The notes under the pieces were generated by a model. The model saw nothing but the letters and a program-made list of their open reading frames with translations. It was not told the origin of the DNA and ran no database searches. Below, piece after piece: positions 20,873 through 59,518 of a stretch of 64,000 bases of DNA (positions are counted from its first letter, which is position 1; every line of letters begins with the position of its first letter). A program made the translations under genes and the position numbers. Source of the DNA: a virus; IMG/VR virus record IMGVR_UViG_3300042453_002354, positions 64,001-128,000 of that record, one strand, 5' to 3'.

Positions 20873-20880
20873 TATAAATA
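20873..20880 (+). promoter_or_regulatory. Late promoter TATAAATA for the plus-strand ORF at 20914
   Basis: Exact consensus, followed by a GGAG RBS. Confidence 0.75.
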
Positions 20881-20913: not shown

Positions 20914-21483
20914 ATGAGACTTCTTTTTTTAAAATTTTTAAATTTGGTTGAACGTCTTCTTAGAAAATATGTAGGCGAAGAAGAGGTAAAAAGTGACAAA
21001 GTATCGAACGATGTCAAACCAGTAGTTGAACCGGAACCCGTCAAAGTGGAAGAAAGTTTAGACGATCCTGAAACGACCGATCTCAACGGACCAGGAGTAA
21101 CACATTGTCTTTGGAAACCAGTATCGGATACTTCACCAGAATTAGTTATTGTAGTTGCTGCCGATACCATTAGAAGAGAACATCTAGTATTAGAATTGCG
21201 TGATAGTAGTGATAAAATAATAAAACTAAAAACTAATAGAAGCTACAGTGATCATAGAGGAAATCAATTACCGGATCACAAATTGGGTAGATTTAATTTT
21301 AAGCCTGGATTTAAAATAGAAAATTTAAAAAGTAGAGAACCAATAACTGTTAAATTTTTCATTCAAATAGGAAAAAAGAAACACGAATGTAAAGTTGGCG
21401 GTAAAGATTCGTTTGTCATCAAAGATGTGGCAAAACGTTGGGTCTGTACCGCCGGTCGTGTTAGATTAGATCCTAAGAAATGA
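20914..21483 (+). CDS. Hypothetical late protein with LWKPxSD domain
   Basis: Own late promoter and RBS; amphipathic N-terminus, acidic/Pro linker, then the domain shared with the gp5 C-terminus and 58394..59518. Confidence 0.75.
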   Translation: MRLLFLKFLNLVERLLRKYVGEEEVKSDKVSNDVKPVVEPEPVKVEESLDDPETTDLNGPGVTHCLWKPVSDTSPELVIVVAADTIRREHLVLELRDSSDKIIKLKTNRSYSDHRGNQLPDHKLGRFNFKPGFKIENLKSREPITVKFFIQIGKKKHECKVGGKDSFVIKDVAKRWVCTAGRVRLDPKK

Positions 21484-21506
21484 TTTAATTTTAATCACCA
21501 AGAAAA

Positions 21507-24065
21507 TTAAGATTTCAATAACTCAATTTCTTTTTTTAAAGATTCAACTTCTTTTATCAATTTTTGAATAAGTGACAAATTTAAAACTGATAAAGTTCCG
21601 TAGTTTACGCCGCCTGGTATTCTTTCCGCACCTTCTAATGTTGTAATACTACCATCTTCGTTTTGTATTAAATCCTCTTGTTTATATTCCCAATTCACTA
21701 GACGAGGTTCAATCTCTGCAACTTCTTCTGCTATTAATCCATAGTACGACCATTCGGCAGGATTTTCTAAAGGATCAGATTTTTTCGACCGAAACCAAAC
21801 AGGACGTAAACCTAAAATTGCATCACGATGTAAATCGTCTATATCTTCAACGTCTTTTTTATATCGAATAGAAGATGATGATCTAAATAATCTACCAGTA
21901 GATCCGGAAATGAATACGTTGGCCGCTCCCGCATTCGTATTATCACGAATGGAATTGGAAAGGAATTGTAAATCTGCTCCCGAGACTTGTGTTCTAAATA
22001 TTTCACTTCCACCTACAGAGAATACTGTTGCGGTACTAGTGGAGTTCACGGAACTAGTTGTTACATTTCCTGTTATATTTCCTGAAAAGGTTGCGGTTAT
22101 AGTTCCTGCACTAAAACTACCACCAGAATCTCTTGATACAATAGTGCTTCCTATATTTGAGGGACTTTGGTCTAACCCATCCAATAAATCCGCATTCAGT
22201 CCGCTACCAGATCCATCATTTCCTGCGTGCCATACCTTATTCCAAGCCGTAGAACCGCTTCCGGCGGTCGCTCTATAATATAATGCATTGCTATCATTAA
22301 AATTACAAGCAAATTGCATTGAGTAGTAATTTCCGGCATTACTGTGTGTACTAGCAAGTAAATGATACCAACCATTTGTCGTTTCTGGCCATCCCTCAGC
22401 AGTTGTTGCGGTACTAGTTTCCCAAAATCCAGAATTGACTCTGGTCGTTATGTTATCTGCCGTGCTGGATGAAGCGGCAGTATTCAAATACGTAGCAGTG
22501 GTTGCACCGCTTGCAGTTCCTGTTAAATTTGCCGTTATAGTTCCAGCACTAAAATTACCAGAAGAGTCTCTTGAGACAACAGTACTTCCGGTGTTTGCAG
22601 AAGTTGCGCTTAATCCGTCCAATAAATCAGCATTCAAATTTGTTACTAAGGTCGTGGAAGAAACCGATAGTGGCGCTGTGCCGGTTGCTACGGTTGAAAT
22701 TAATTGACTTGACGATCTTATAGATCCAGATACATCTAATTTTGTACCTGGACTTGCAGTTCCTATTCCGACATCACCACTTGATGTAATTCTCATGCGC
22801 TCGACATTATTGTTTCCAATGATAAAATCGGAATTTTCGTGATTCCAGAGATAAGCAACTGCACTAGCATTAATTCCAATAACCAAACCATCGCCGGTGG
22901 TCGTTCCAGTATTTGTATTTTGGAATGACGCAAACGCTTCATTTGCGGTCGTATTACGAAATCTCGCTCTAAACGTTGTTGAACCCGAGGTTACATCGAG
23001 CACATCTAGCGGTGAGGCTGTTCCTATACCAACATTACCGCTTGAGTTTATTCTGAATCTTTCTACACGAGTTGTAGAAGCACTAGGTGTGGTCGAAATT
23101 GCAAAAAATGTAGGATGACTAGTGGCGGTCGGCGTCGATTCTACGCCAATACTAATAGAAGCAGTATTTATAAATGTCGTTCCATTGCTAGTTGTGCCTG
23201 CCACTATGTTTAGAGGATTTGTTGAAGTTGTCGTTGCAGATGGACTTGCTTCAGTGCCGCCGGCCGCTTGCAGACCAACGCTACAAGATCCTCCGTAACT
23301 TCTTCCGAGTAGAGCAGTATTGATCGTTTCGCCTGATCGTATTACTATGGTTTGTGCAGCATTCGATACAGTATTTGAAGTATTTAAACAAGCGGTACCA
23401 TCAGAATTTATGCGGAATCTTTCAGTATTATTAGTTCTTAAACTAATTGCAGACGCATCTTGTCCAAGTAATGTTAAATCTCCTGTACCTCGGTGTTGTA
23501 TATAACTGCTACCGTTTGCTCCTCCATCTCTTGATAATCTCATTCCAAAATCGGTGTAAGTGGTATCACCTACGAAATCAATATAACTCTGTCCACTTCC
23601 CGTTCTACCATTTCCGATTTGTATTAAACAAGACTGTGTACTTGTGTTCGTATTTCCAACGTATAATTGTGCTCCTGCACCAGTCAGGTTAAGGGTTCCT
23701 GCAAATGTTGCCGCACCTGCATTGCTAATATTCCAATTGTTTGAGTTGGTCTGTGAAATGGAATATACATTAGTTATTGATTGATCGCCAAGACTTAATC
23801 CGGTTCCAAAAACGACTTGATCGCTTGAGTTCAGTCCTATCAAATTTACATTACCTGTATTTGCCGCATTTCTTGCCGTGATCGATTGATTATTCGGTAT
23901 TCTTAAATAACCAGACGATGCCGGACTTGGACCTAATGCAAGTCCACCGCCAATAGTTACTGAACCATCTGAAGATGATATTGTTAATCTATCCGTGCCT
24001 CCGGTCCTCAATGCTAAATCTTGTCCAGATGCGGTTGTTAAATTTTTAACTGTTAATGTAGCCAT
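21507..24065 (-). CDS. Tail fibre with C-terminal intramolecular chaperone (peptidase S74-like)
   Basis: ERMRITSSG.VGIGT repeats, LNADLLDG and C-terminal SSIRYKKDV...LRPV.F...YGLIAEEV plus a coiled coil. Confidence 0.88.
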   Translation of the reverse strand: MATLTVKNLTTASGQDLALRTGGTDRLTISSSDGSVTIGGGLALGPSPASSGYLRIPNNQSITARNAANTGNVNLIGLNSSDQVVFGTGLSLGDQSITNVYSISQTNSNNWNISNAGAATFAGTLNLTGAGAQLYVGNTNTSTQSCLIQIGNGRTGSGQSYIDFVGDTTYTDFGMRLSRDGGANGSSYIQHRGTGDLTLLGQDASAISLRTNNTERFRINSDGTACLNTSNTVSNAAQTIVIRSGETINTALLGRSYGGSCSVGLQAAGGTEASPSATTTSTNPLNIVAGTTSNGTTFINTASISIGVESTPTATSHPTFFAISTTPSASTTRVERFRINSSGNVGIGTASPLDVLDVTSGSTTFRARFRNTTANEAFASFQNTNTGTTTGDGLVIGINASAVAYLWNHENSDFIIGNNNVERMRITSSGDVGIGTASPGTKLDVSGSIRSSSQLISTVATGTAPLSVSSTTLVTNLNADLLDGLSATSANTGSTVVSRDSSGNFSAGTITANLTGTASGATTATYLNTAASSSTADNITTRVNSGFWETSTATTAEGWPETTNGWYHLLASTHSNAGNYYSMQFACNFNDSNALYYRATAGSGSTAWNKVWHAGNDGSGSGLNADLLDGLDQSPSNIGSTIVSRDSGGSFSAGTITATFSGNITGNVTTSSVNSTSTATVFSVGGSEIFRTQVSGADLQFLSNSIRDNTNAGAANVFISGSTGRLFRSSSSIRYKKDVEDIDDLHRDAILGLRPVWFRSKKSDPLENPAEWSYYGLIAEEVAEIEPRLVNWEYKQEDLIQNEDGSITTLEGAERIPGGVNYGTLSVLNLSLIQKLIKEVESLKKEIELLKS

Positions 24066-24099
24066 TTTTATTTTTACCTATTTAAAATTTAATTTCCTA

Positions 24100-26565
24100 T
24101 TAACTTATAAGAGCATAATTTACAAAGGCTCTCCAATTCACAGTCTGTGAGGCCGCACCAGTCACTCGGATTCTAACATCATTTGTGGAAACATCTACGG
24201 TAAAATCATATCCAGAACTTCCATAAGATTCAATCTCCTTGATTGTTCCTCCAAAATCTGCTGCTAACGTTGCTGCACCGGCATTATTTCTATAAACCAA
24301 AAATCTTAATTTTCCACCTACGCCCATAGCAGTTGTACTACTTCTCCTACCAACAACGTCAACATCAAATGAATATGTCGTATTATCTGCAAGAGTGAGT
24401 GTATACAAATTAGTTTGTGTTGCATCGGTAGTTGTGACGTTTGCAGATGTTCGTACAGTACCAGTAGGATCGCTAGAACCACCAGAAGCCGCTTTCCATA
24501 CTGCATTTCCGGTCGAAGTATCTTTTGTCAATACGTGTTCATTAGTAGCAGAAGATACGGCAGTCAGTGCATTAATGGCAGCTTGTGCAGTTGTTTGTCC
24601 TGTACCGCCGTTTGCTACCGGTAGAGTTCCCGTGACACCGCTTGATAATGGTAGACCTGTACAGTTTGTTAATGTACCGGAAGTTGGCGTACCAAGTAAT
24701 GGCGTTACTAGAGTTGGTGAAGTTGCAAATACCAAAGAGCCAGATCCGGTTTCGTCAGAAATGACACCAGCTAGTTCTGCTGAAGTTGTTGCTGCAAATG
24801 CATTTAGTTTATTGGATGTTGTAGTTAATGTACCGGATGTGGGTAATGTTACATTTGTCGCTGCGGTGGTAGTTAAAGTCAACGCAAAGTTGCCTGAGGT
24901 TGTTAAATTGTTAGCCAGAGTTAAATCGCCGGATAAACTTAATGTTCTATTTGCATCGTTGACGTTCAGACTGAGTGTTCTTGCTGCCGTTAGGTTTGCG
25001 CTATTTGTAATTCCCAAGTAATGAGAAGGCGTTGAATCGTCATACAAAAAGATATCACCAAAATATCCACTTTGTGTCGATGTGTTACTATTTGATAGTG
25101 CATCTGTAATGCCATAACCACTTATTGTAGTAGGTTTGGAAGCTATATTCGCAAAGGTGTATCCTGTACAGTTTGTTAATGTACCGGAAGTTGGCGTACC
25201 AAGTAATGGAGTCACTAAAGTAGGAGAAGTTGCAAATACTAAAGATCCAGATCCAGTTTCATCAGTGATTGCCGATCTTAGATTAGCACTTGTATCACTA
25301 ATTCCGTAACCGCTAAATGTTGTAGGATTTGTTCCTGATGTGACCCTTCCTTTAACATCTACGGTCACAGATCTATATGTTCCAGCAGTTGCGCCAGAAT
25401 TTGCTAAAGTCAATGAGGAAGATACATCAGCAGAACCATCAAAAGAAACTGACCAAGTTGCATCACCAGTTGCAGAAATACTTCTTGCAGTGGCAAGTTT
25501 TGTAGCAGTGTCGGAATTACCAGCAACAGGACTAATTTCTATATAAGCCGAACCTGACCATCTATAAATTTTATTTGTATCTAAAGCAACATAAATTTTT
25601 GCAGTTTCTCCGCTAACTGGAAATCCAGCAAGATTTGCATATTCGAGAACATCATCCACAAAACTAGGAAGCTGTGATGAAGGAACCAATCCCGAAGCAT
25701 TTAGTGTAGCAACGCCATTTACTGCACCCTTTTCGGATGATGCTACAGCATCGGTAATTCCGTAACCACTTAACGTTGTGGGTTTTGAAGATATGTTTGC
25801 AAAAGTATAACCAGTACAATTTGTTAATGTACCAGAAGTTGGAGTTCCTAAAATTGGCGTTACTAAGGTTGGTGAAGTTGCAAATACCAAAGAGCCAGAT
25901 CCCGTCTCATCAGTGATTGCTGATGCAAGGTTTGCGCTTGTATCACTAATTCCGTAACCGCTGAATGTAGTGGGATTAGTACCGCTGGTTACACGACCCT
26001 TAGCGTCTACAGTCACAGATCTATATGTTCCAGCAGTTGCGCCAGAATTTGCAAGCGTTAGTGAGCTTGATGCATTTGCCGAACCATCAAAAGAAACTGA
26101 CCACGTGGCATCGCCAGTTACAGAAATATCTCTTGCTGTTGCCAATTTGGTAGAAGTTGCTGAGTTTCCGTCTATACTACCTGAAATTGTGCTTGAAAAT
26201 GTTTTTGTTCCTGCTATTGTTTGCGTGCCAGTAGTTATTAATCCTCTATTGCTGGATGATGCATCTGGTATGTTAAATGTATGTGTGCTTGTCGAGGATG
26301 AAATATTAAAATCTGTTCCAGATGTTCCTGTCGCAAATGTTTGTGTCGATGCGGTTAAACTATTGAGTGATGTTATACCACCCTCAACTGAGGATGAAAT
26401 GGTAACATCACCAGTTCCCGTATCGATACCAGTTGATGACAGTGTTATGCCAGTACCAGCAATCAATCGCTTAACTACAGCTTGGCCAGAAACAGTATCG
26501 TTTAGATCACTTCTTTTTACTTCTTGATCTTTAATTTGTATAGATTTAATTTCTGTTCTGGACAT
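24100..26565 (-). CDS. Tail fibre protein with internal repeats
   Basis: AGTYRSVTVD.KGRVT.G.NPTT..GYGI.D and DETGSGSLVFATSPTLVTP repeats; LPSFVDDVLEY module. Confidence 0.85.
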   Translation of the reverse strand: MSRTEIKSIQIKDQEVKRSDLNDTVSGQAVVKRLIAGTGITLSSTGIDTGTGDVTISSSVEGGITSLNSLTASTQTFATGTSGTDFNISSSTSTHTFNIPDASSSNRGLITTGTQTIAGTKTFSSTISGSIDGNSATSTKLATARDISVTGDATWSVSFDGSANASSSLTLANSGATAGTYRSVTVDAKGRVTSGTNPTTFSGYGISDTSANLASAITDETGSGSLVFATSPTLVTPILGTPTSGTLTNCTGYTFANISSKPTTLSGYGITDAVASSEKGAVNGVATLNASGLVPSSQLPSFVDDVLEYANLAGFPVSGETAKIYVALDTNKIYRWSGSAYIEISPVAGNSDTATKLATARSISATGDATWSVSFDGSADVSSSLTLANSGATAGTYRSVTVDVKGRVTSGTNPTTFSGYGISDTSANLRSAITDETGSGSLVFATSPTLVTPLLGTPTSGTLTNCTGYTFANIASKPTTISGYGITDALSNSNTSTQSGYFGDIFLYDDSTPSHYLGITNSANLTAARTLSLNVNDANRTLSLSGDLTLANNLTTSGNFALTLTTTAATNVTLPTSGTLTTTSNKLNAFAATTSAELAGVISDETGSGSLVFATSPTLVTPLLGTPTSGTLTNCTGLPLSSGVTGTLPVANGGTGQTTAQAAINALTAVSSATNEHVLTKDTSTGNAVWKAASGGSSDPTGTVRTSANVTTTDATQTNLYTLTLADNTTYSFDVDVVGRRSSTTAMGVGGKLRFLVYRNNAGAATLAADFGGTIKEIESYGSSGYDFTVDVSTNDVRIRVTGAASQTVNWRAFVNYALIS
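24660..26165. repeat. Internal duplication in the fibre gene: two units of about 420 bp plus a partial third
   Basis: About 25750-26165 vs 25100-25515, near-identical in protein; partial copy at about 24660-24770. Confidence 0.85.
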
Positions 26566-26599
26566 ATTAAAATCCTTTGATAAGATTTGTTTTTATTAT

Positions 26600-29500
26600 T
26601 TATGATTCTAGAATCTCGATTCTTTCTTTCAATTTTTGTATTTCTTCTAATGCACTTTGTAGTGCTTTTGTTGAATTGCTGGCAATTTCCGACAACTCTT
26701 GTATGGATTTAATTATAGGCGATATGAATTCGTGATACCTCAACGATTGCTGTGAGTTAGGATCATCTTTATCGGATAATATCCAACCGGCAAAATCCTC
26801 ACCATTTTTACCAATCTGTTCTAATACTTCTTTTACTTCTTGTGCTATTAGTCCATAGTGTGTTCTTGTACCACTTTTTGGTGTTATCGTTTTGATTATT
26901 TTTCTATTTTCATCTAACAAAGGTTCACCGTTCTCATCTTTTTGTACATTAACTTCATTATAACCTACTTTCCATTTATAACTAACTGGTCTTAGTGCAT
27001 TTATAAAATTTAAACCAAGAGGGGAGTTTTCTATAGTATGCTTCGTTCTCACATCAGAAGTGTTAATTGTACCATCAACAGACCAGACCTCCTGCCAGCG
27101 ATAGTCATCATTACCTAATAAATGTGAATTATCCAGTTGTGGGAGTACGTTACCAGCAGGTGAAATCCAAAGTCCTTTGACTTGACTTGTATTTGTAATA
27201 TAAATTTCACCGTTTCGTGCATATTCATACACACCTCTTATCGTTGGTGTGATTCCGAAACTGTCCGTGGGTATTACCAATTCATTAGCCCAAAGATCAA
27301 AGGACCATGTAACACCGGCATCTGGACCTACAAATCTTATAGGGCCTTCTCCATTCTGGAAAATTTTTAAATTGCCGTTTATACCAGGTTCTCTTATTAT
27401 TCTTGCATCAAAATCGGTGCTGTCTTGCGAATGAAAATCTATATAACTATTTCTATCACCAGTTCCTATTGAATTTATTTCAATTCCGCCGGCGCCAGTT
27501 AGTATTGTACCTGCGGTTATAGTTCCAGCACTAAAATTACCAGAAGCATCTCTTCTGACTATAGTATTTCCAACATTACTCGCTGTTCCTAATAAGGAAT
27601 CATTTCCTGAATGCCATATTCTATTCCAAGACTTATTTCCATCATCAGTCGTCGCTCTATAAAACAATGAATTGCTATCATAAAAACTACCAGCAAATTG
27701 CATTGAGTAATAATTTGAGGTAGTACTATGCGTACTGCACAATAGATGATACCAAGCATTTGTCGTTTCTGGCCATCCTTCGGCGATTGTTGCGGTACTA
27801 GTTTCCCAAAATCCGGAATTGACTCTATTGGTTATATTATCTGCCGTGCTTGATGAAAAGGCAGTATTTAAATATGTAGCAGTGGTTGCACTGGTGGCAT
27901 TTCCAAAAAATTGGTTTGCTGTAACATCTCCCGCAACGTGTAACGAGGTACTTGGAGTATTCGTGCCAATTCCAATATTACCGCCTGATGTAATTCTCAT
28001 TCTTTCGGTGGCATTTGTGCTAAAGGTTAAATTTGCCGCCGCCGATGTCCGAATGTCTAATGTTCCCGTTCCCGAGTGTGATATTTCGCCAGTACCATTT
28101 AATCCTCCGTTGCGAGTCATTCGCAAAGTGCCGCCGCCGGAGGATGCACCAACAAGTGAAATTTGTGAAATACCGCTTCCGCTGCGACCATTTCCGACTT
28201 GAATGGAACACGTTTCAGTGCTAGTTGCGAAATCGCCAACCTTTAAAGTTGCGGCTGCGGGACGGATCATAACCACACCGTCGGCATCTATTCGCATTCT
28301 CTCTGTATTGTTTGTATGGAGTGCAAAATATCCGTTTTGTTGGTTTGAAAAGATGACGTTACTTCCATCTGCATTAGAGATATAAGCAGATCGAAATCCA
28401 CCACCTCCACTAGTTCCAAGATCTACACTAAATTCCGGTCTAGCCGCAAGATCGCCAATTCGCACAGATCCTATAACGTCCAGTGGATAGAGAGGATTAT
28501 TTGTTCCAATGCCGATCAACCCCATAGATGTAATTCTCATTCTTTCGGTACCGGCTCCGTAGTTTCCGCTCCAAAACTGTAACGCTCCGGTAGACTCGGC
28601 AGTTATATGAAAGTTATTTGAAGAAGTCGAACTACTTCCGATCTGAAGACTACTAGCAACATCAAGATTAGCATACGGAGATGTTGTGCCTATACCCACT
28701 TTACCAGTAGACGTAATTCTCATTCTCTCAGACAATCCAGTTACTATAACAATAGGAGCTGCATCTTGCGTTTGCAATAATAAAGATCCAGTGCCTCTAT
28801 GTGAAAGAACGGAATCGGCATTAGCACCACTAGCTTCTCTAGAAATTCTTAAACCAAAATCGGAATAGGTAGTATCACCTATGAAATCAATATAACTTTG
28901 TCCACTCCCTGTTCTACCATTTCCGATTTGTATTAAACAAGACTGTGTACTTGTATTTGAGTTTCCGACATAAAATTCGGCGCCTTGTTTACTTACTGTA
29001 ACGTTACCATCTGAACCTATTCTAAATCTTTCAGTAAATCCTGTACCAGTTTTAATTACGAGATTATCCGATGTTCCTATTGTTCTAATGGAATTTGTGA
29101 TGACATCGCCAGAAGATGAAAATCCGCCTGAGTTTATAATTCCAGTGACATCAATATCAGTTCCCCAGAGTTTTCCTACTCTACTTCCCGATGCACCAAT
29201 GTCATAAGTTGAATTTGGTATAAATGCCGCATTTGTTCCATTTGCTATGCGCCATTGATAAGCACCGCCATTTGAACCAAGATATAATGATTGCCCAGTT
29301 CCAGAATTTAATTGATTTCCAAAAATTTGAGATAATGCATTAGTAGTAGCTCCGAAATTTTGACTATTGGCGGTAGAGGGTATTAAGTTTCCTCCGCTAT
29401 CTAGATTCCATTTTGTTGCGCCACCGGCTGCTAGAGCTAGTGTGGTATCTGAGGTAATCTTTCTAGAAAATGTTTCAGCTAGATTGAAACCAGAGCGTCC

Positions 29501-29851: not shown

Positions 29852-29885
29852 AGTAATCCCTCTGCTACAATGTTATTTGCACTTC

Positions 29886-29893
29886 TATTTATA
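29886..29893 (-). promoter_or_regulatory. Late promoter TATAAATA
   Basis: Exact consensus upstream of the 26600..29851 fibre gene. Confidence 0.7.
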
Positions 29894-30995: not shown

Positions 30996-30998
30996 ATT

Positions 30999-33575: not shown

Positions 33576-33585
33576 TATTTCATCC

Positions 33586-33930
33586 TTATGTGTTTACGTC
33601 TTCTATTAAAGAACTTTGCACATCAAATAAAATACCAGCGGATTCGGATTTAACTTCAACATAATCTCCAGGTTCTAAAACTAATTTATTACCTTCGATC
33701 AAACAAGGCAAAGCACTTCCTTCTGGAACTGGTGCGCCCTTTACGGTGTATGTTGACACACTAGCGGAACTATCATAAACTCTAACAGAAACCTGACCAC
33801 CACCATTTATGGATGCGACACTAATATGGATAAAATAACTAGTCTTACCACTAGGCGCCGTGTATAACGTTTGCCAAGAAGCACCAACATCTTTCAAATT
33901 TGCATTTTTAAAATTGCTGTTTATTGCCAT
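33586..33930 (-). CDS. Small virion structural protein
   Basis: N.FKN, LYTAP and KLVLE.GD motif family common in T4-like fibre clusters. Confidence 0.7.
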   Translation of the reverse strand: MAINSNFKNANLKDVGASWQTLYTAPSGKTSYFIHISVASINGGGQVSVRVYDSSASVSTYTVKGAPVPEGSALPCLIEGNKLVLEPGDYVEVKSESAGILFDVQSSLIEDVNT

Positions 33931-33942
33931 ATATTTTTCCTA

Positions 33943-41847: not shown

Positions 41848-41960
41848 AATGAAATTCCGCTAAAGTGTGATTTTGTTATATTTAGTCGATAATAACCGAG
41901 ATTATTTTTAGTAGATTTTTATGTTCTAGAATATTATTTGTATAGTGTATCATATACAAA

Positions 41961-43613: not shown

Positions 43614-43657
43614 CGAACATTTCCTTAAAATGTTATTATGTCATTATTTAGTATTGT

Positions 43658-51099: not shown

Positions 51100-51507
51100 T
51101 TATCGGACCCTTTTTAGTGAAAATGTAATCTGCTTCGATTCGGTTTCTCCAACTATGTAGAACTGAATTTGTAACACCAAAGTATTTTGATTTAGTAGAT
51201 TTTTTGATGGTGGAGACATAACCTGTATTGATTGTATTCTAACTCTAGGCTCATAATCACGAATGGCCTCTTGAATCTTAGTTTTTATGATGTGTTCTGT
51301 CTGTGAATCGTACTGTTCAAACAATTGAGAAATTACATTTCCACCGAAAGATGGATTATAAAACTTTTCATAAAAATTAGTCGATACAATTTGTCGAACG
51401 GCTCTTGCGATGGCCCTATCACCTCTAAGTGGTATCAAATCGCCTGTGTCTGGATGTGGAGTGAAAGATAGATCTAAATCGCTATATCTTCTTTTTTCTA
51501 GAGCCAT
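51100..51507 (-). CDS. gp25: Baseplate wedge subunit
   Basis: YSDLDLSF..HP.T.D, AI...V...V.T...E..F.P.FG and YEPRV. Confidence 0.93.
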   Translation of the reverse strand: MALEKRRYSDLDLSFTPHPDTGDLIPLRGDRAIARAVRQIVSTNFYEKFYNPSFGGNVISQLFEQYDSQTEHIIKTKIQEAIRDYEPRVRIQSIQVMSPPSKNLLNQNTLVLQIQFYIVGETESKQITFSLKRVR

Positions 51508-51544
51508 AAACTATTGATGCCTAAACTAAAAGTCTTACGACTTT

Positions 51545-51552
51545 TATTTATA
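51545..51552 (-). promoter_or_regulatory. Late promoter TATAAATA (gp25-gp6-gp7)
   Basis: Exact consensus. Confidence 0.75.
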
Positions 51553-51871
51553 CTAGGATCAAAAAATAGTATGACCAACAGAACATTACATAAACATAGA
51601 AAGAATTCACTGTAAAAAGTGATGTAAGTAAAAATTTACTGTTCAATATCGATTCTGTATGATATGCATAAGACAATACGAATAGTGCTAATGACTTTAC
51701 CAAAGATAATCCAAACATTGCGCCAAGGTGATAACAAAGCCATTTCACCAATGGATTACCTTCAATTTCCACAGAACCGTGATTTAATATACCAAAATAT
51801 GTAAAATTCATGTCCAAAAATTGAACAATTAGTAGCGATACGATAAGTACTTTGTTTAATTTTTTAATCAT
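51548..51871 (-). CDS. Small multi-pass membrane protein (DUF5658-like)
   Basis: LD...TY.G......E.NPL motif and three hydrophobic segments; likely start MIKKL. Confidence 0.7.
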   Translation of the reverse strand: MIKKLNKVLIVSLLIVQFLDMNFTYFGILNHGSVEIEGNPLVKWLCYHLGAMFGLSLVKSLALFVLSYAYHTESILNSKFLLTSLFTVNSFYVYVMFCWSYYFLILV

Positions 51872-54497
51872 GTCTAAATTTACCATCATATACTAAGAAT
51901 TCACGAGTGTTGTCGGATATAATAAATTGTTTTGGATAATCTTTGGCATATTTTGAAAATCTATAGTGATCTCTACCACCATTTGCATTACCAGCAAATC
52001 TAGGCCTTTCAATCACATTACCTTTTCTGTGTTTCGGTGCGGTGACTTGCCATTTAGAAAAATCTCCTGGTCCGTGATCGTAATAGATGAAAAACGTTTC
52101 CAATTCACCTGTCGGCAATGCTTCATACATCACTATTGGTCCACTGCCCGGCGGAACTAGAACGACTGGTTTACCATCACTATCTGCTTTTGGTTTGTAG
52201 AGATAGTTGCTTTGACTCGGATCGTATGAACCATTAGAAAATCTAATTCTAAATCCAGGCTTGAAGTTGGAAGAGGTTTGTTCGGTAGTACTTTCAGCTT
52301 CTGGTATGAATGGAGGTTCTAAGTTTGGTGTATAAATGGGCGAGAATGTCGGAAACAAATTAGCAACACCTGCCACATTAAATGAGGCGGTATTGTTTCC
52401 GATAGTAGGAGATTCAAATATGATAGATGAAGCAGCTCTCATTGAAATATAACTCAAAGATTCAAATGCTATCGTATCTGCGATTATTTTAACTTTACCG
52501 TCAACCTTTAATACGTAATCGCCACCTACTTCTACTTCTTTATTATCTGCGATCTTTTGTGCGTGACCACCTTCCATTTCTTGAAAGGTTGTGCCAGATT
52601 TAATAGATAAACCACCTGTACTTATTGTAGTTGAACCAGATTCGATTGTCAATTCGGTTTCTGATTTTATTTTTGTGGATTCATCGGAAGTTAAGTTTAT
52701 ATTTTTATTGCTTGCTATGTACATATCGGCCACCGATATTGTGTACAGTTTATTCAAGCACTTATCGACCAGTGTACCATCAGGATGAATTTCTCTAAAT
52801 GTGCCAGAACGATGATACCAATGCAATCTTTCTGCCTTTGGTGTATCATCTATTTCTATGTAATGTCCAGATTCGGATTGATATACGTGATTGTATGGCC
52901 ATTTTGCAGCATAAGGCGTTGCAGGTTCTTCAAAGGGTTCGCCTTCGACTGGTAGTTGATCTTTTGTTTCGCCCTTTGTCTCTGTTTTTTGTGGATTAAC
53001 AATCCTCGGTAAAGATGGACTTAATTTCATTCCTTTTACTGGTTCATATGCGGCCGCCGAAAAGGAGGAAACATTTGAATTCTTTTTACCTACGATGGTA
53101 TCTTCTATTTTTTGATTTCTGGCAAGTCTTGGTGTTACTGGTTCATTTAAGTATGGTTCAAGTGGATATCTACTAGCAGAATAAACTGGCGTGTTGTATG
53201 TCGCTGAAGACTGTTCTTCGGCGGTGCTTGTTGCCGATGGTCTTAGTAACTCCGCATCTGCTTCATCGTAAACACCATCATTGTTTACGTCATACGGAAA
53301 GTTTTGTATATCAAAATCTTTTTGTAAAACACCAACTGCGGTTCCTTGTGTGAATAGTTTATTTTCATTCCTAAGAGGATCATTACTTTCTCTTTCATTT
53401 TCAAATTCTATCGGAACCAATTCTTCATCATTTGCACCAAAATCTAGTCCCAAAAATTCTGAGATTTTTTGTGCTGTACTTCTTCCAAACCTTGATATCA
53501 TCTCAAGTGGATTGTTAATTGGAATCAAGGCAGTTATGACGGAAGAAACATTACTTACAACATCGCCATTAAACAATTGAGTAACTTCAAATGTTCCACC
53601 ATTTTGTATGTTCGATAAAATCAAATTAATAGGACTAGAAGGACCAAGAGTGGAAAGAGATTGTGATACTTCTGGTGGTATTATATTATTGACATATGAT
53701 GTTATTCTATTAGTCACCTCAGATTGTAAGACATCTTTAAAATTCAGCAACAAATCTGGATTAGCTGACATTTGATTCAATATGACATTTAATCCGTCCG
53801 TTACATTTCTTCTGTTTGTGTCTGACAGATTTTTAGCGGAAGAAATTCCCATTCCATTGATCAAGTTATCAAAACTATTTGCACTCAAATCTTCAGATAA
53901 TAGCGATAGACCATTTGAAGGATTTAAAAATGTTTGAGCCAAATTTAATGTCGATTGTGAATTAAACTTTGGCAATTGCTGTACTAGATTGTCTATTTTC
54001 GTTCTATCATTTACTGGTACTTGATAACGCACATCAGTTAAAAACTTATTGACTGAAGTTTTGGATGCATCTTGCATTCCAGTTACAAAATTGGAGCCAA
54101 AATCATACGAACCACCGAACTCTGGAGGTCTAGGTACTTCACCATTGCTTAATTGTTCGGGTGTGGTAGGATCGTTAAATCCTACGTCAGGTACAGAGGT
54201 TTGTGTCGGTATGCCTGGTATCATACCTATCACACAAGGCATTTGGCATATGGTAGAATCCATAAAAAAGCCAAAAACCCAGTCACCTTCCCTGAGTCCT
54301 ACGACATTGTTTCCGTGATCGATTGGTAAACAAACCTGAGCCCAAGGTAGAGTATCAGTCGGTATTTGACTCTTATCTTCGGTGTGTAGTCCAAAAATGC
54401 GTACACGAACACGACCTAGCATTAGAGGGTCCATTCGATCCTCTACTACGCCTTTCCACCACACGAAACCGTCTAAGCCTTCAAAGTTTTTTAACAT
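51864..54497 (-). CDS. gp5: Baseplate hub / needle protein gp5, with no recognisable lysozyme domain
   Basis: F.WW.GVVEDR.DP..LGRVRVRI.G.H...IPT..LPWA (OB fold) and YP.NHV..SESGH..E.DDTP..ER...HRSGTF.EI..DG, followed by a beta-helix. Confidence 0.92.
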   Translation of the reverse strand: MLKNFEGLDGFVWWKGVVEDRMDPLMLGRVRVRIFGLHTEDKSQIPTDTLPWAQVCLPIDHGNNVVGLREGDWVFGFFMDSTICQMPCVIGMIPGIPTQTSVPDVGFNDPTTPEQLSNGEVPRPPEFGGSYDFGSNFVTGMQDASKTSVNKFLTDVRYQVPVNDRTKIDNLVQQLPKFNSQSTLNLAQTFLNPSNGLSLLSEDLSANSFDNLINGMGISSAKNLSDTNRRNVTDGLNVILNQMSANPDLLLNFKDVLQSEVTNRITSYVNNIIPPEVSQSLSTLGPSSPINLILSNIQNGGTFEVTQLFNGDVVSNVSSVITALIPINNPLEMISRFGRSTAQKISEFLGLDFGANDEELVPIEFENERESNDPLRNENKLFTQGTAVGVLQKDFDIQNFPYDVNNDGVYDEADAELLRPSATSTAEEQSSATYNTPVYSASRYPLEPYLNEPVTPRLARNQKIEDTIVGKKNSNVSSFSAAAYEPVKGMKLSPSLPRIVNPQKTETKGETKDQLPVEGEPFEEPATPYAAKWPYNHVYQSESGHYIEIDDTPKAERLHWYHRSGTFREIHPDGTLVDKCLNKLYTISVADMYIASNKNINLTSDESTKIKSETELTIESGSTTISTGGLSIKSGTTFQEMEGGHAQKIADNKEVEVGGDYVLKVDGKVKIIADTIAFESLSYISMRAASSIIFESPTIGNNTASFNVAGVANLFPTFSPIYTPNLEPPFIPEAESTTEQTSSNFKPGFRIRFSNGSYDPSQSNYLYKPKADSDGKPVVLVPPGSGPIVMYEALPTGELETFFIYYDHGPGDFSKWQVTAPKHRKGNVIERPRFAGNANGGRDHYRFSKYAKDYPKQFIISDNTREFLVYDGKFRHD

Positions 54498-54524
54498 AGT
54501 GCGTTTATGAAAAATGATCTCTAG

Positions 54525-54782
54525 TTATGTATCTTTCAAACATTTATCATCTAGCGTCTTTTTCGCTAAAGAGACCATTTTTATGTAATCCATCACTATT
54601 AAAAAGTCTTCTACGATTTCATCTTCTATTCTGTACATCTCCTCAATACTTAGATCACTGTGCATATTAAAATCGATAGAATCTCTGAATAATCTAATCA
54701 GAGATTTTCTTGCAGTATTATAGAGATATCGATCATTTACTGGTCTAGTCATTTTAAGTCCAAAGAAAAAATCTGATATCAA
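54525..54782 (-). CDS. Hypothetical protein
   Basis: ORF in a co-directional cluster; likely start MTRPV. Confidence 0.5.
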   Translation of the reverse strand: MISDFFFGLKMTRPVNDRYLYNTARKSLIRLFRDSIDFNMHSDLSIEEMYRIEDEIVEDFLIVMDYIKMVSLAKKTLDDKCLKDT

Positions 54783-55407
54783 TCAGACGATGTAACATTT
54801 CTTGATCTTCTTTATCCCAATATTGTTCTAGTTCAAATGAGTTCTGCCGAAGTTCCTTTCTCAACTCTCTCTCACTTTCAGTAAGTTCATCTTCCATCGT
54901 AAGAAATTTAGAACCTTCGATTTCTACAAACTTGTACCATTTTCTACCATCATTGTTTACCTGCTTTATTAATTCTTCAATCTGAATTAGATTTATATCT
55001 ACTCTGCCAGGTCTAGCATCTTTCCACCAAAGATAAAGCTCCCTAACTTCTTTAGCGAAATTTCTGTGACCTTCATTTAAATCTTCACCATCCCTCGATA
55101 GTTCTGGACTCATATTTAACCAAAGTTCTAGATATGATAATCCAAGTTCTCGATTAGATAATCCCTTGTAACTAATCTTTTTAAATCTTCGATGACCTAT
55201 TTCCATTTTAGCCAATTCGTTCTCGACAAAGTGTGTCAATACTGCAAAATTGGCATATAATAACATCTCACGAGAATCTGAAAAGCCAGGTTTAGTTCCT
55301 AAGTGTACTACGTGATACTTGTCGTATGTTCTGTGTGCAATCCACGATTTTATTCGGTAAAACTTATGGACAATATCATTCAGTATAAGTTTTTGCATCG
55401 TCTTCAT
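54754..55407 (-). CDS. Hypothetical protein
   Basis: Well-formed ORF (D.RE.ML.ANF..L..FVE.E...E...LY.WWK..RP.R...D..ML.RLI.IR..LWT, a recurring phage family); start likely MKTMQ. Confidence 0.65.
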   Translation of the reverse strand: MKTMQKLILNDIVHKFYRIKSWIAHRTYDKYHVVHLGTKPGFSDSREMLLYANFAVLTHFVENELAKMEIGHRRFKKISYKGLSNRELGLSYLELWLNMSPELSRDGEDLNEGHRNFAKEVRELYLWWKDARPGRVDINLIQIEELIKQVNNDGRKWYKFVEIEGSKFLTMEDELTESERELRKELRQNSFELEQYWDKEDQEMLHRLIDIRFFLWT

Positions 55408-55432
55408 AATATTATACCAAAAAAATACACAC

Positions 55433-55744
55433 TTATTCTTTGTTGTTTTGTTCGTGTAATTGTTTAAGTGTCTCGCCGAGAAATACACACTCCATATAAG
55501 ATTCTGAACAAGGTCTCCATTTTTGCACTTTCTTATACTCTATTCTATTTTGTTTTGCATCTACCCAAAACGGTTCATCTTCATCTATGTCCAGATATGC
55601 AAGCACATTATCATTTTCTTGTTCAACCCATACCAACATATTCAAACAAGGTCTAACCTTGTGCATAAAATTCCAATCATTAAAATTTATGTAGGCAAGT
55701 TCAAACTCAAAATCAAAGTCAACCACATCATCAAAGTATATCAT
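55433..55744 (-). CDS. Hypothetical protein
   Basis: ORF with an ATGA overlap to the upstream gene. Confidence 0.55.
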   Translation of the reverse strand: MIYFDDVVDFDFEFELAYINFNDWNFMHKVRPCLNMLVWVEQENDNVLAYLDIDEDEPFWVDAKQNRIEYKKVQKWRPCSESYMECVFLGETLKQLHEQNNKE

Positions 55745-55920
55745 TGTAATAATTCCTCTACAAGTTTTTTATAAACGTCATATGCCTCTAGCAATTCTGA
55801 GAGCATCGGTGTTATCTCTTCTTCTTTTAATTCATAAAAGCCGCCTAATAAGATGTCTTCAACATCCTTTATAAGTTCTTTAAGAATTTCTAACTTTTCT
55901 ATGGCGATGTCAATTTCCAT
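55741..55920 (-). CDS. Hypothetical acidic 59-aa helical protein (not in ORF track)
   Basis: Manual translation MEIDIAIEKLEILKELIKDVEDILLGGFYELKEEEITPMLSELLEAYDVYKKLVEELLQ; fills the gap exactly. Confidence 0.6.
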   Translation of the reverse strand: MEIDIAIEKLEILKELIKDVEDILLGGFYELKEEEITPMLSELLEAYDVYKKLVEELLQ

Positions 55921-55923
55921 TTT

Positions 55924-56181
55924 TTAGTCTTCATATAAAAATGCTTCGATTCTTTTTAGTTTTTCTTGTAGCGTTTTCAATCTTGCTTGCAGCTTCCATC
56001 TTTTTGTTGGATTTTTTCTTACCTGAAGTCTACCAAAAACATCCATATATTTTTGTTGATATTTCTGATATGATTTAAGTGCTTCGGCATTTAACTTTCT
56101 AGTAACCGAAGTCTGGTTCGGTTCCGCTGTGCTCAATTCTTGATTGCTCTCCTCTTCCTTTGGTGATAATGTTTCTGTCAT
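55924..56181 (-). CDS. Hypothetical protein
   Basis: GAAGGAG RBS before MTETLS; basic coiled-coil C-terminus. Confidence 0.6.
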   Translation of the reverse strand: MTETLSPKEEESNQELSTAEPNQTSVTRKLNAEALKSYQKYQQKYMDVFGRLQVRKNPTKRWKLQARLKTLQEKLKRIEAFLYED

Positions 56182-56845
56182 TTTTTTCTCCTTCAACTTT
56201 AATCGGATTCCAATCTATAATATCTATTTTATGCTTTTTTAGAAACTCATTGCAAGCAGAAAAATGCTTACAATTAAAAAAACCTCTGTGTGCTGAAAGT
56301 GGCGATGGATGTGCAGCTTTCAGTATCAGGTGCTTTTTCTTGTCTATGAATGCAGAACATTTGGCAGATTTCTGACCCCACAACATAAAAACCACATTTG
56401 GCAAAGAATCCGAAATGTGCTTTATAACTCTTTCGGTAAAAATCTCCCACCCCAATCCATAATGAGAACCTGGTCTTCCGTTCTCTACTGTTAAAACTCT
56501 ATTCAGTAAAAATACACCCTGATCAATCCAATTTGACAGTCTACCTTGAATTTGGATATCTCCGATGTCTGACTGTATTTCCTTAAATATATTGTTCAGA
56601 GAAGCGGGTACAGTCTCTTCCGTAGACTCGAATGCAACACCAGTAGCAGCACCATTGTGATAAGGATCTTGTCCTATTATAACCACTTTGATTTTGGCTA
56701 GTGGCACACTCGCAAAAATTTTAAACGTATTTTCTGGATCTGGATATACTAGCGTCCGTTTTCTCTCATTGGTCACACGTAATGCCAAATCCTGAAAATA
56801 TTGTTCGTGCGATTGTAATGTTAAAAATTCTCTCCACTCTTGCAT
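56099..56845 (-). CDS. ung: Uracil-DNA glycosylase, family 1
   Basis: KVVIIGQDPYH, A.G.AF, P.SL.NIFKE, QGVFLLN..LTV, VFMLWG and HPSPLSA.RGFF. Confidence 0.96.
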   Translation of the reverse strand: MQEWREFLTLQSHEQYFQDLALRVTNERKRTLVYPDPENTFKIFASVPLAKIKVVIIGQDPYHNGAATGVAFESTEETVPASLNNIFKEIQSDIGDIQIQGRLSNWIDQGVFLLNRVLTVENGRPGSHYGLGWEIFTERVIKHISDSLPNVVFMLWGQKSAKCSAFIDKKKHLILKAAHPSPLSAHRGFFNCKHFSACNEFLKKHKIDIIDWNPIKVEGEKNDRNIITKGRGEQSRIEHSGTEPDFGY

Positions 56846-57060
56846 AAATTATTCAATTGCTCCTGTAAAAGTTTCTTCTTGAGATACAGCTCTTCAAGTT
56901 CTCTGAAAAGATTTATGCAACCTATACCAACGCACGAATGTATTGTTCTGTATACATACTGAATTTGGCATTCGGTCTTTTCAATTTCTTCTCTAATTTC
57001 TTTAATCAAGGTCGTCATTTTCTGTATTCCCATTTTGTAAATTTTCGCAACGCAAAACAT
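56821..57060 (-). CDS. Hypothetical protein
   Basis: ORF in cluster; start uncertain (probably MTTLI). Confidence 0.45.
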   Translation of the reverse strand: MFCVAKIYKMGIQKMTTLIKEIREEIEKTECQIQYVYRTIHSCVGIGCINLFRELEELYLKKKLLQEQLNNLCKSGENF

Positions 57061-57310
57061 AGTCTTCTGTAACTAATTCACAAAATTGCTTTTCGCTAAT
57101 GTTATTTAAGTCTGATCCTTTTAACTTTAAAATTTTCAACGTCTTTGTAATTGATAATATCATAGTTGAATAGACAGTGCAATTACTTGCAAAAATTTTA
57201 TTTGCCACTTCCAAATCAGATAAGGTTGATGATTTTACACTTCTTGCGGTGCCAAATCCTATAACCCAAAATATCAAAGCAAATACAATATCCACAAAAG
57301 TCAAATTCAT
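57002..57310 (-). CDS. Hypothetical membrane-anchored protein
   Basis: N-terminal hydrophobic segment; AGGA RBS. Confidence 0.55.
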   Translation of the reverse strand: MNLTFVDIVFALIFWVIGFGTARSVKSSTLSDLEVANKIFASNCTVYSTMILSITKTLKILKLKGSDLNNISEKQFCELVTEDYVLRCENLQNGNTENDDLD

Positions 57311-57324
57311 TATTTTTCCTATGT

Positions 57325-57615
57325 TTAACGTTTTTGATTATAACCGGATGAAAAACTACTTGATGCGTATGCTTCTTTTCTTGCATATTGAATTAATTCA
57401 TTAACTCTAATTTCCAAATTTGTATATCTTTCTCGTCTATACTTTCGACTCTCTTCTTCAATCTTCTGTCTCGAAATGCAAGTATACTTTTGGTGCAAAA
57501 TTACAGATACTTCATAACTAGTGTATACAGAATGTCTTGCCAGATCATAAAACTCGTGGATTAATTCTTCTTGTTTTATTAGAAGGTGACTTGTAATTTG
57601 AGTCATATTATCCAC
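57325..57615 (-). CDS. Hypothetical protein
   Basis: ORF in a co-directional cluster. Confidence 0.5.
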   Translation of the reverse strand: MDNMTQITSHLLIKQEELIHEFYDLARHSVYTSYEVSVILHQKYTCISRQKIEEESRKYRRERYTNLEIRVNELIQYARKEAYASSSFSSGYNQKR

Positions 57616-58202
57616 CTTAAAAATAATTTTTTAGAATCTGGTCTGTTCATTATATAATCGCAAGTTTCGGCTATAATGTCAAGACCGTTTGTTATGAAGT
57701 CGGCCTCAGCTTCAGAATATTTTTTAATGTGCTGTAAATACAATTCTTTATAGTGCATTGCATTGTAATAAGATAACAACCAATCGTGTTGTTGATATCT
57801 ATCGATCTTTAATGAATTGATTTTAAGGTTGAAAATATTAAATAGATTTTTCCCTATTGATTTTGTCAATCTAGTATCAAATGAATTTTGATTATATTCT
57901 GATATGAAATGCCCTATTTTAAATTTGTGATTCTTGTGTATAGAAGATGTAAACTTATATGTTATGGGTGCATACAAATTACCGCCCAATGAAGATACCA
58001 AACCCTTTTCTGATAAGAACTTCCACTTCTTATAAGAATATTCATTTATACCTTTTTTATTTTCATCTCTCCAAAAATCAACTTCTTCACTCTGCGGACA
58101 AATTTCTTTGTTGAACATATCGGTAAACTTTTCGATATGCTCTTCGTATTCAAGAAATTTGGCATAGTCCTCAAAGCGAACTAAAGTGACTTCAGTTGTC
58201 AT
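57603..58202 (-). CDS. Hypothetical protein
   Basis: 199-aa ORF with a GAGGG RBS. Confidence 0.6.
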   Translation of the reverse strand: MTTEVTLVRFEDYAKFLEYEEHIEKFTDMFNKEICPQSEEVDFWRDENKKGINEYSYKKWKFLSEKGLVSSLGGNLYAPITYKFTSSIHKNHKFKIGHFISEYNQNSFDTRLTKSIGKNLFNIFNLKINSLKIDRYQQHDWLLSYYNAMHYKELYLQHIKKYSEAEADFITNGLDIIAETCDYIMNRPDSKKLFLRWII

Positions 58203-58335
58203 TTATTTCCCTCTGAGATATTTGTGTTCTATTTCCTTTTTTCTTTTTCTTTTTGTTTGCGTGTACAAACACAGAAAGAAATTTGAAATCAATAAAATGT
58301 CTAGTCTTTGTTCTTTTTTTCTTTTTGTTTGCCAT
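58192..58335 (-). CDS. Very basic 47-aa peptide
   Basis: GGGAG RBS then MANKKKKRTK...HANKKKKKKG; first ORF after a sigma70 promoter. Confidence 0.5.
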   Translation of the reverse strand: MANKKKKRTKTRHFIDFKFLSVFVHANKKKKKKGNRTQISQREINDN

Positions 58336-58356
58336 ATTGCTTCTCCCTATTTTTAT

Positions 58357-58386
58357 ATTATAACAAAAAGGATCATAACATAGCAA
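58357..58386 (-). promoter_or_regulatory. Sigma70-type (early) promoter with extended -10
   Basis: TTGCTA, 18 nt, TATAAT, with TG at the extended -10 position. Confidence 0.65.
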
Positions 58387-58393
58387 ATGTTTA

Positions 58394-59518
58394 CTATCTA
58401 AAAGTTCCGTGTCGAAATGCTGGATTTACTTTGCCATAAATTTTACCATCAGAACCTCTTAATTTACAAACTCCCGTATTTTGGTCTTTTATTGCTTCTT
58501 GAGATAATTTATATCCAAATTGATTAAAATAATATCTCCATCTTCCGTCAACGAATGCCAAAGGTGAACTAGATCTGGCAATAACCTTTCCGCTTTTTGT
58601 TACTAACTCAAAATACTTTAATCTGACTGGTGCAATTAGAACCGGCTTATATGCTCTTGGTTCTGGTGGTGTATAGTGTCTGTCTGAATGTGATTTCCAC
58701 AACCAATTTGTAGGTAACGATATTCCTTTGCCAGAATCGTTGCGTAAATATTTAATAGATTCTATCAAACTTTTCGTCGGCCACGATCTTCTTTGTGGTC
58801 TCGGCGTTTCATCTGTGACCTTCAATCTGCCATTCATTGCTGGATGCCAAAGAAAAAAGATCTCAGCACCTTTTAATGACTCCTTTCTAGTTTGTACATC
58901 ATCATCAACGGAACTACTACCATCGTGCGAAAAAAGATATGCACCTCTTCTTGGACTTGCTTTTGATCCGTGTACTTCATTGACTATTCTATCGCCCGTT
59001 ATGAACGAACCAAAAGGAACCCAAGGATTGTTTACATAGAAACAATTATCACGTTTTGGCAAAACTTTTAAAACTTCATCCGCCAGTTCTTTTGCAAGTT
59101 CTTTATTGAGAACGTGTTCAGTGGCGCCAGAAAAATACCATATGACATTTTTATATCTTTTAGGAAATTCAGCAAATCTTTTTGCTTCTGCTATAATTTT
59201 AGGAAAATCATTTCTAGTAAAATTGTGATCGTCTCTCCAAGCCAAGTTCAGTCTTATAGCCGGAGTTCTTCCTCTTCTAGCAAGGTGTTTTATGACATTT
59301 GTTGGATCATCAAATAAATCCTTTTGTGTAAAAAAACCGGCGGCCCAACCACGAGGATGTGAATCTATTATAACTTGTGGATACTTACCGCCACCAAGAT
59401 AATCCATACCGAATAGTCTTGGTCTTTTGACTTCTGGTGTTAGCGCAACAGATTGAAATTGGAATGGTAGGCATAATAAAAGCAATACGACTAATACCTT
59501 GATTCTATGAAAATTCAT
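58394..59518 (-). CDS. Secreted hypothetical protein: possible TIM-barrel domain plus C-terminal LWKxxSD domain
   Basis: Signal peptide MNFHRIKVLVVLLLLCLPFQFQSVA; alternating beta/alpha pattern; C-terminal WLWKSHSD...DGRWRYYF. Confidence 0.65.
   Translation of the reverse strand: MNFHRIKVLVVLLLLCLPFQFQSVALTPEVKRPRLFGMDYLGGGKYPQVIIDSHPRGWAAGFFTQKDLFDDPTNVIKHLARRGRTPAIRLNLAWRDDHNFTRNDFPKIIAEAKRFAEFPKRYKNVIWYFSGATEHVLNKELAKELADEVLKVLPKRDNCFYVNNPWVPFGSFITGDRIVNEVHGSKASPRRGAYLFSHDGSSSVDDDVQTRKESLKGAEIFFLWHPAMNGRLKVTDETPRPQRRSWPTKSLIESIKYLRNDSGKGISLPTNWLWKSHSDRHYTPPEPRAYKPVLIAPVRLKYFELVTKSGKVIARSSSPLAFVDGRWRYYFNQFGYKLSQEAIKDQNTGVCKLRGSDGKIYGKVNPAFRHGTFR

Follow-up and report, generated by a model that had tools for sequence, protein, structure and literature searches.

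The window analysed here is a stretch of 64,000 nucleotides (positions 64,001 to 128,000 of the IMG/VR record IMGVR_UViG_3300042453_002354) and forms part of the genome of an uncultured T4-like myovirus (156.9 kb, 92% complete). Within this window, three otherwise unrelated proteins carry anciently diverged copies of one undescribed beta-sandwich domain: the baseplate spike protein gp5, which bears it at its tip, an exported glycosidase-like protein (open reading frame [ORF] 58394), and a small late protein (ORF 20914). We refer to it as the LWKP domain, a name taken from its first strand. An initial annotation of the window had drawn attention to the three segments by their common motif order, without giving strands; all of the quoted motifs were found, with ORF 20914 on the plus strand (its LWKP motif starting at 21109) and both gp5 and ORF 58394 on the minus strand, the segments of the latter two being rich in stop codons when translated on the plus strand.

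The gp5 gene (51864 to 54497, minus strand) encodes an 877-amino-acid (aa) baseplate hub and central spike protein, recognized by PF06714 (Gp5_OB, 3.8e-10) and phrog_430 (3e-78). Its N-terminal OB domain (residues 40-112; 54162 to 54380) is defined by the PF06714 match, and a triple-stranded beta-helix with approximate limits at residues ~525-700 (52398 to 52925) is indicated by PHROG 27932 (3.8e-11) and PHROG 24638, both at residues 525-674, together with a weak DUF2345 match at residues 591-636. The helix is followed by a linker (residues ~701-762; 52212 to 52397) with a composition rich in Ser, Pro, Thr, and Asn, which is kept in gp5 relatives and contains a conserved FKPGF strand, and finally by the LWKP domain itself (residues 763-877; 51867 to 52211), which was delimited by phmmer, a hidden Markov model (HMM), and an AlphaFold2 (AF2) model, and which is of a long form with a hairpin insert of ~30 aa. 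KVP40-like gp5 proteins found by tblastn align with the N-terminus and the beta-helix alone, in pieces that reach residues 605-714. In gp5 proteins, the LWKP domain always lies C-terminal to the beta-helix, and some carry two tandem copies, as do some of the metagenomic relatives P0152, P0153, P0163, and P0143. In P0143, the place of the T4 gp5 lysozyme, between OB domain and helix, is taken by a domain of peptidase M23, a cell wall hydrolase family, and more sequence follows the LWKP domain.

The expectation that this gp5 lacks a lysozyme was borne out, as Pfam reports Gp5_OB alone and no lysozyme family in the protein. PF00959 matches the genome just once, in a separate ORF of 164 aa that lies outside the window (G000:C1:55337-55720; 3e-46) and encodes a stand-alone T4-type lysozyme, probably the phage endolysin. 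The middle region of gp5, where T4 has lysozyme (residues 113-520; 52926 to 54161, minus strand), consists of 408 aa rich in Ser, Asn, and Leu and gave no family match. Between gp5 and the gp25 gene lies a 113-aa ORF (51548 to 51889, minus strand) that overlaps the gp5 stop by 26 nucleotides (nt) and occupies the site where T4 would have small spike-associated genes. It encodes a multi-pass membrane protein (DUF5658, E 1.8e-6), odd beside baseplate genes, and was ruled out on this ground as a PAAR tip protein.

ORF 58394 (58394 to 59518, minus strand) encodes 374 aa when read from the ATG at 59518, which is the likely start rather than the listed TTG at 59581 because homologues do not span the TTG extension; their coverage begins after the signal peptide. 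The predicted Sec-type signal peptide (~25 residues; 59444 to 59518), as read from the translation, has a basic N-terminus and a Leu-rich core followed by SVA, and it is present in about half of the family, the other half starting directly at the barrel. The protein then comprises a (beta/alpha)8 barrel (residues 29-262; 58733 to 59434; AF2 model, VIA, and Foldseek) and an LWKP-like C-terminal beta-sandwich (residues 267-374; 58397 to 58720; hhalign, and strand order as in the gp5 model), to which a conserved TPPEPRA insert (following strand 1) and a single helix are added. In the AF2 model (predicted local distance difference test [pLDDT] 94.2, predicted template modeling score [pTM] 0.88), the LWKP domain is an integral part of a two-domain, enzyme-like fold rather than a loosely attached module.

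Structural comparison with VIA placed the barrel of ORF 58394 closest to glycoside hydrolase (GH) family 5 enzymes (Z 13-14.6 over ~210 residues), with non-glycosidase TIM barrels at Z 12-13, and Foldseek returned GH29, GH140, GH26, GH5, and GH30 members at E ~1e-4, the identity to structural neighbours being 8-12%. No membership in a curated GH family was detected by sequence in Pfam, NCBIfam, PHROG, or PDB. In the barrel, E134-H135 (following strand 4), N180-E181 (within strand 6), and D199/D205 (following strand 7) are invariant. Judged from the model, the barrel is most like the glycosidases of clan GH-A/GH5, and we regard the protein as a putative enzyme. Its family (169 homologues) is mostly phage-borne, with 44 viral-contig loci, and tblastn against GenBank phages yielded no match. 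In a 57%-identical relative, the homologue precedes the same gene block leading to gp5, and at about 10 loci it is near fibre-like structural genes. A role as the phage endolysin was ruled out by the canonical T4-type lysozyme gene elsewhere in the genome.

ORF 20914 (20914 to 21483, plus strand) encodes a 189-aa protein conserved in phages (9 homologues, 39-94% identity), for which tblastn against GenBank phages likewise gave no match. Residues 1-21 (20914 to 20976) form a predicted amphipathic helix with a hydrophobic moment of 0.35-0.74, above that of shuffled sequences in four of five homologues. An acidic, Pro-rich linker follows at residues 22-60 (21% E, 13% D, 13% P), and both helix and linker are conserved in the family alignment. 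The remainder (residues ~60-189; 21091 to 21480) is an LWKP-type domain of a divergent subfamily with an extended C-terminal part, identified by hhalign and HMM. A T4-type late promoter box, TATAAATA, is located 34 nt upstream of the start (20873 to 20880, plus strand), with a GGAG ribosome-binding site in between, and is the sole plus-strand copy in the window. The box and the helix agree with the description of ORF 20914 as a late protein with an amphipathic N-terminus. The gene stands between a gp14-like neck gene and a tail-fibre gene (PHROGs), on the opposite strand to both, and this arrangement is kept in a 50%-identical relative (locus L015). At a locus of a more distant relative (36% identity; L016, 8379-10606), the homologue is found away from the neck gene and follows a homologue of the window ORF at 56099-56845 (phrog_12143), a gene whose place in the window is between those of gp5 and ORF 58394. 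On the minus strand, further TATAAATA boxes at 13092, 13104, 15161, 19125, 29886, and 51545 stand just upstream of late genes, e.g., before gp25 at 51507, and would fit T4-type late promoters by their placement; the window total of 11 is not above the shuffle expectation of 8.3.

To define the family, the full library was searched by phmmer with the last 134 residues of gp5. This search related 119 cluster representatives to the gp5 C-terminus, 25 of them at E<=1e-10, and the gp5 C-terminus matched the resulting family HMM at 7e-45. The domain is an immunoglobulin (Ig)-like beta-sandwich of 90-115 aa with a fixed motif order: [LF][WY]K[PS]x[SA]D, a hydrophobic strand K/E-x-V-[VL]-[LIV], G-x-[VI]-[IV], GRxx[FY]x[FY], G, and a terminal R. 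It occurs as a long form of ~115 aa at gp5 C-termini, which contains the hairpin insert, and as a short form of ~90 aa that either ends proteins of ~300 aa or forms small stand-alone proteins; Gp5_OB was present in 21 of the 74 family matches that were scanned. In the merged alignment, the motif order is identical across all four groups.

The initial annotation expected one fold throughout and recognized no named family. Two of the proteins were modelled, and the models of the gp5 domain (pLDDT 92.2, pTM 0.80; an all-beta sandwich with a long two-stranded hairpin) and the ORF 58394 C-terminus, compared by strand order, agree in the succession of their seven strands and in the strands that carry the shared motifs; Foldseek named no family. 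The lack of a named family was supported by the searches: neither the LWKP domain nor ORF 20914 or ORF 58394 matched Pfam, PHROGs, or NCBIfam; PDB sequence profiles gave no match for the domain or for ORF 58394; Foldseek of the gp5 domain against the PDB gave nothing below E 0.5; curated carbohydrate-binding module (CBM) families and VgrG adaptor domains showed no sequence match; and no paper found in the literature search ("FLWKP" motif) names the domain. ESM Atlas returned noise-level scores alone for ORF 20914 and for one cellular carrier. Among predicted viral structures (BFVD), the best three matches of the gp5 domain model (probability 0.99-1.0) were a Gp5-OB protein and two uncharacterised proteins of 451 and 375 aa, all from uncultured tailed phages, the identity of the latter two not being confirmed. 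A match of P0169 with nine stretches fell on CarboxypepD_reg repeats, probably reflecting generic strand similarity, and was not used.

The evidence that the three copies share ancestry comes from profiles. Pairwise BLASTP among the three proteins was not significant (best domain-level E 0.85-1.9), and the single lower value (E 0.04) is an 8-residue NFKPGF match that is out of register. Profile-profile alignments are significant (92.6-96.2%): hhalign joined the gp5 C-terminal family to the ORF 58394 C-terminal family (92.6%, E 4.4e-7), the ORF 20914 family to the short-form profile (96.2%, E 2.6e-9, 92 columns), and the ORF 58394 family to the same profile (96.0%, E 4.5e-9, 60 columns; 96.0-96.2% across the domain profiles). 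With 40 column shuffles per query, scores did not exceed 20 and probabilities did not exceed 6.4% (maximum 3.8% for ORF 20914 and 6.4% for ORF 58394), compared with real scores of 51-53. When the domain HMM was run over the 520 stop-to-stop ORFs of the window, gp5, ORF 20914, and ORF 58394 took ranks 1-3 (7e-45, 6e-4, and 0.97, respectively). In the whole phage genome, ORF 20914 was recovered (9e-6) by a profile without any ORF 20914 relative, which also recovered two homologues of 50% and 36% identity from other phage contigs (2e-7 and 3e-6, respectively); a further HMM-versus-sequence match of ORF 20914 stood at 4.6e-5. Direct hhalign comparisons were weak for ORF 20914 against gp5 (15%) and against ORF 58394 (39-41%). 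By these sequence comparisons, the three domains appear to be homologous, which supports the central claim of one domain in three otherwise unrelated proteins. The link to ORF 58394 is the weakest, as it depends on profile-profile comparison. Since the three copies belong to different old subfamilies, they do not stem from a recent duplication or triplication.

The domain is also found in cells. The initial annotation had mentioned LWKPxS[DE] proteins from little-studied Gram-negative bacteria, and such proteins do exist: short-form carriers occur in metagenome-assembled genomes labelled Dadabacteria, Deltaproteobacteria, Bdellovibrionales/Bdellovibrionota, and Planctomycetota. In a sample of 121 Bdellovibrionota-phylum genomes (the phylum of the Bdellovibrionales match; cut-off E<=1e-8), 111 (92%) carried the LWKP domain, usually in 1-7 copies. 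In 5 of the 20 loci with wider flanks (L057, L060, L063, L064, and L068), motA-motB directly follow the LWKP gene on the same strand. At two previously examined loci, the LWKP gene likewise adjoins motA-motB: in L005 it immediately precedes them in the same orientation, and in L003 it is their direct neighbour but divergently oriented. The motAB-linked protein has ~320 aa, with a helical or disordered N-terminal part and the short-form LWKP domain at its end, and lacks an export signal; HDOD and PAS-histidine-kinase genes are frequent upstream of its gene, and the MotB has an OmpA-type domain. In our view, this is a candidate for an undescribed protein associated with the flagellar stator; publications on the Bdellovibrio stator make no mention of the gene upstream of motAB. 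The ORF 58394 family was present in just 2 of the 121 genomes, and prediction of the phage host from that family was ruled out accordingly.

The reading that we favour, and to which we assign an even chance when it is taken as a whole, is that the LWKP domain is a noncatalytic ligand-binding module acting in the envelope or periplasm, with separate roles in its three phage carriers. The ligand would be bound through conserved basic and aromatic residues, namely, the lysine of LWKP, the arginines of the GR motif and at the terminus, and W/Y/F residues. The spike of phage P2 reaches the periplasm on contraction, and delivery is treated as established for the T4 and P2 spikes (PMC12407873). On the strength of this established behaviour (PMC12407873), gp5 would likewise carry three LWKP copies into the host periplasm on tail contraction, where their target may be a component of the envelope (peptidoglycan or some other anionic glycan being the most likely), by which they would hold or orient the spike tip. 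In the exported ORF 58394, the domain would serve as a substrate-targeting or stabilising beta-domain of the barrel enzyme, and ORF 20914 would present the same binding module as a late protein, perhaps attached to the virion or to a membrane. The initial annotation, whose interpretation is partly supported, had in addition suggested an envelope-modifying activity and a reuse of the module in exit or receptor masking.

The following points count in favour of this reading: (i) an envelope or periplasmic location is suggested by the position of the spike, the signal peptide of ORF 58394, the lipoprotein- and signal-peptide-type carriers (four and about six, respectively, FG-GAP and DUF5106 fusions among them), the M23-bearing gp5, and the motA-motB neighbours; (ii) a binding function is suggested by the position of the domain after a GH-like barrel, the usual place of accessory beta-sandwiches, and by weak structural neighbours that include GH9 Ig domains, expansin D2, and several CBMs.

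Several observations weigh against it. No recognisable N-terminal export signal was found in 107 of 117 carriers, the motAB-linked form included, and therefore periplasmic action is not general unless another export route is used. Together with the roughly half of the ORF 58394 family that has no signal peptide, these counts argue against a simple view in which the domain always faces the envelope. The matches to CBM, Ig, and fibronectin type III (FN3) structures, which came from a wide VIA search independent of Foldseek, are generic sandwiches at background level (Z<=6.3). The invariant polar residues (K, S/D, N, G, R, H, and R) would equally fit a small catalytic or metal-binding site. Finally, ORF 58394 was not significant in HMM-versus-sequence searches: beyond the E of 0.97 among the 520 ORFs, the reciprocal search gave 3.3 and the best value, against 127 domains, was 0.0015.

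A bolder extension joins the phage and cellular forms. The LWKP domain would then be a periplasmic or cell wall docking module common to phage spike tips and a near-universal Bdellovibrionota protein working with the flagellar stator. While the genome is delivered, the spike would anchor itself through the ligand that the cellular protein also uses, be it peptidoglycan or an envelope structure associated with the stator, in place of the lysozyme strategy of T4. We regard this as a long shot; if it were true, the spread of the cellular family across taxa would give a hint of the lineage of the host.

Among the alternatives, the strongest is that the LWKP domain is a protein-protein adaptor, comparable to the C-terminal adaptors of evolved VgrG proteins, with the gp5 copy docking ORF 20914 or another virion or host protein and the cellular copies docking MotA/MotB or being flagellar export substrates. 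The gene order LWKP-motA-motB on one strand in 5 of 20 sampled genomes, plus the 2 found earlier, suggests a protein partner, and the absence of export signals in most carriers, the Ig-like and FN3-like neighbours (cytokine receptors) that are protein binders, and the placement of the late gene ORF 20914 among structural genes all agree with it. However, the fusion to a GH-like barrel with high interdomain confidence (pTM 0.88) resembles an enzyme accessory domain, lipoprotein and signal-peptide forms do occur, and the structural neighbours of the gp5 domain include no transthyretin-like fold. We consider an adaptor role unlikely.

It is also conceivable that the domain is truly common to gp5 and ORF 20914 alone and that the ORF 58394 C-terminus is an unrelated, analogous glycosidase beta-sandwich with similar short motifs. 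The nonsignificant searches with ORF 58394 listed above speak for such an analogy, as do the failure of profile A3 to recover ORF 58394 from the whole genome at E<=10 and the family-specific insert and helix that are absent from the other groups. Against it stand the three profile-profile comparisons at 92.6-96.2% (shuffles <=6.4%), the third rank of ORF 58394 among the 520 ORFs, and the seven strands that correspond in order and carry the motifs on the same strands. The 375-aa uncharacterised phage protein that BFVD gave for the gp5 domain model (probability 0.99), its identity not being confirmed, may also speak against analogy. On this balance, we hold analogy to be distinctly unlikely.

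Very unlikely, in our view, is a purely structural explanation in which the gp5 domain is an assembly device that trimerises the beta-helix and is then removed, or a cap that replaces a missing PAAR/gp5.4 tip, the other two copies being unrelated to entry. The 92%-complete genome yielded no PAAR match (PF05488, E<=10), a membrane protein rather than a tip protein is encoded between gp5 and gp25, and the domain is invariably C-terminal to the helix and sometimes tandem, all of which would suit this explanation; the PF05488 model, however, may miss divergent tip proteins. Moreover, the flexible linker of ~60 aa before the domain is ill-suited to a rigid, sharpened tip, the monomer model folds confidently alone, and the same domain works in nontrimeric contexts. 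Pfam found no Peptidase_S74 intramolecular chaperone in gp5, and the domain model is all-beta, in contrast to the largely helical S74 autoprotease. The last alternative, a chance recurrence of short motifs in beta-rich sequences without any shared domain, has the insignificant pairwise BLASTP results in its favour and is scarcely credible given profile-profile scores of 51-53 against <=20 for shuffles, ranks 1-3 of 520 ORFs for the three proteins, motifs conserved family-wide, and the recovery of ORF 20914 and its homologues by a profile containing none of them.

Whichever ligand the envelope-binding module that we favour may have, the gp5 described here combines a familiar type of machine, the "evolved" spike, with a domain family that is new. 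It resembles the evolved VgrG of type VI secretion and fused spike-tip proteins such as P2 gpV in joining an OB domain and a triple beta-helix spike to an extra C-terminal module delivered, or in the present case presumed to be delivered, to the periplasm (PMC12407873). Known VgrG extensions, transthyretin-like adaptors, and the gpV apex, however, match the LWKP domain neither in sequence nor clearly in fold; the domain also hangs on a long, flexible linker and recurs in two further proteins of this phage. T4 gp5 shares the N-terminal OB domain and the C-terminal beta-helix, and the phage gene is near homologues of gp25, gp6, gp7, and gp8; T4 gp5, however, is a tail lysozyme with a gp5.4 PAAR tip, whereas the gp5 of this phage has no lysozyme but a 408-aa unmatched middle and an added C-terminal domain, and a PAAR motif was not found. 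Compared with clan GH-A hydrolases that have a C-terminal beta-sandwich (GH5 with CBM, GH30, and GH29), ORF 58394 shows the same sequence of a barrel and then a tightly packed sandwich, but without sequence membership, at an identity of 8-12%, and with non-glycosidase TIM barrels scoring nearly as high. Ig/FN3-like modules (the GH9 N-terminal Ig domain, expansin D2/CBM63, CBM56, and CBM4) are seven- to eight-stranded sandwiches of similar size; the LWKP domain reaches just Z 5-6.3 against them, at a root mean square deviation of 3-4 A, and has none of their sequence signatures.

A widespread domain has thus been left unnamed by databases despite at least 119 clusters at the 50%-identity level and its presence in 92% of the sampled genomes of one phylum, and it occurs as a fusion to the cell-puncturing spike in a clade of lysozyme-less T4-like phages. 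Because the C-terminal modules of spikes decide how contractile machines handle the envelope after puncture, a new module of this kind is a concrete target for structural and binding studies, and a second, independent route to its ligand is opened by the linkage of the cellular form to motA-motB. That a single phage should carry three diverged copies suggests one common host component as their target at several stages of infection. The value of the finding lies in a well-delimited, testable module rather than in a solved mechanism.

A minor observation concerns the genes that accompany the barrel enzyme. On two IMG/VR contigs of 140 and 260 kb (L081 and L082), ORF 58394 homologues (52% identity) are located ~1 kb from a gene for a trypsin-like protease, itself a homologue (34% identity) of the trypsin-like protease encoded in the window at 62171-62941, so that the two genes are neighbours there as they are in the window. 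From these neighbourhoods, it appears that the genes for the barrel enzyme and the S1 protease stay linked in large phages that are only distantly related.

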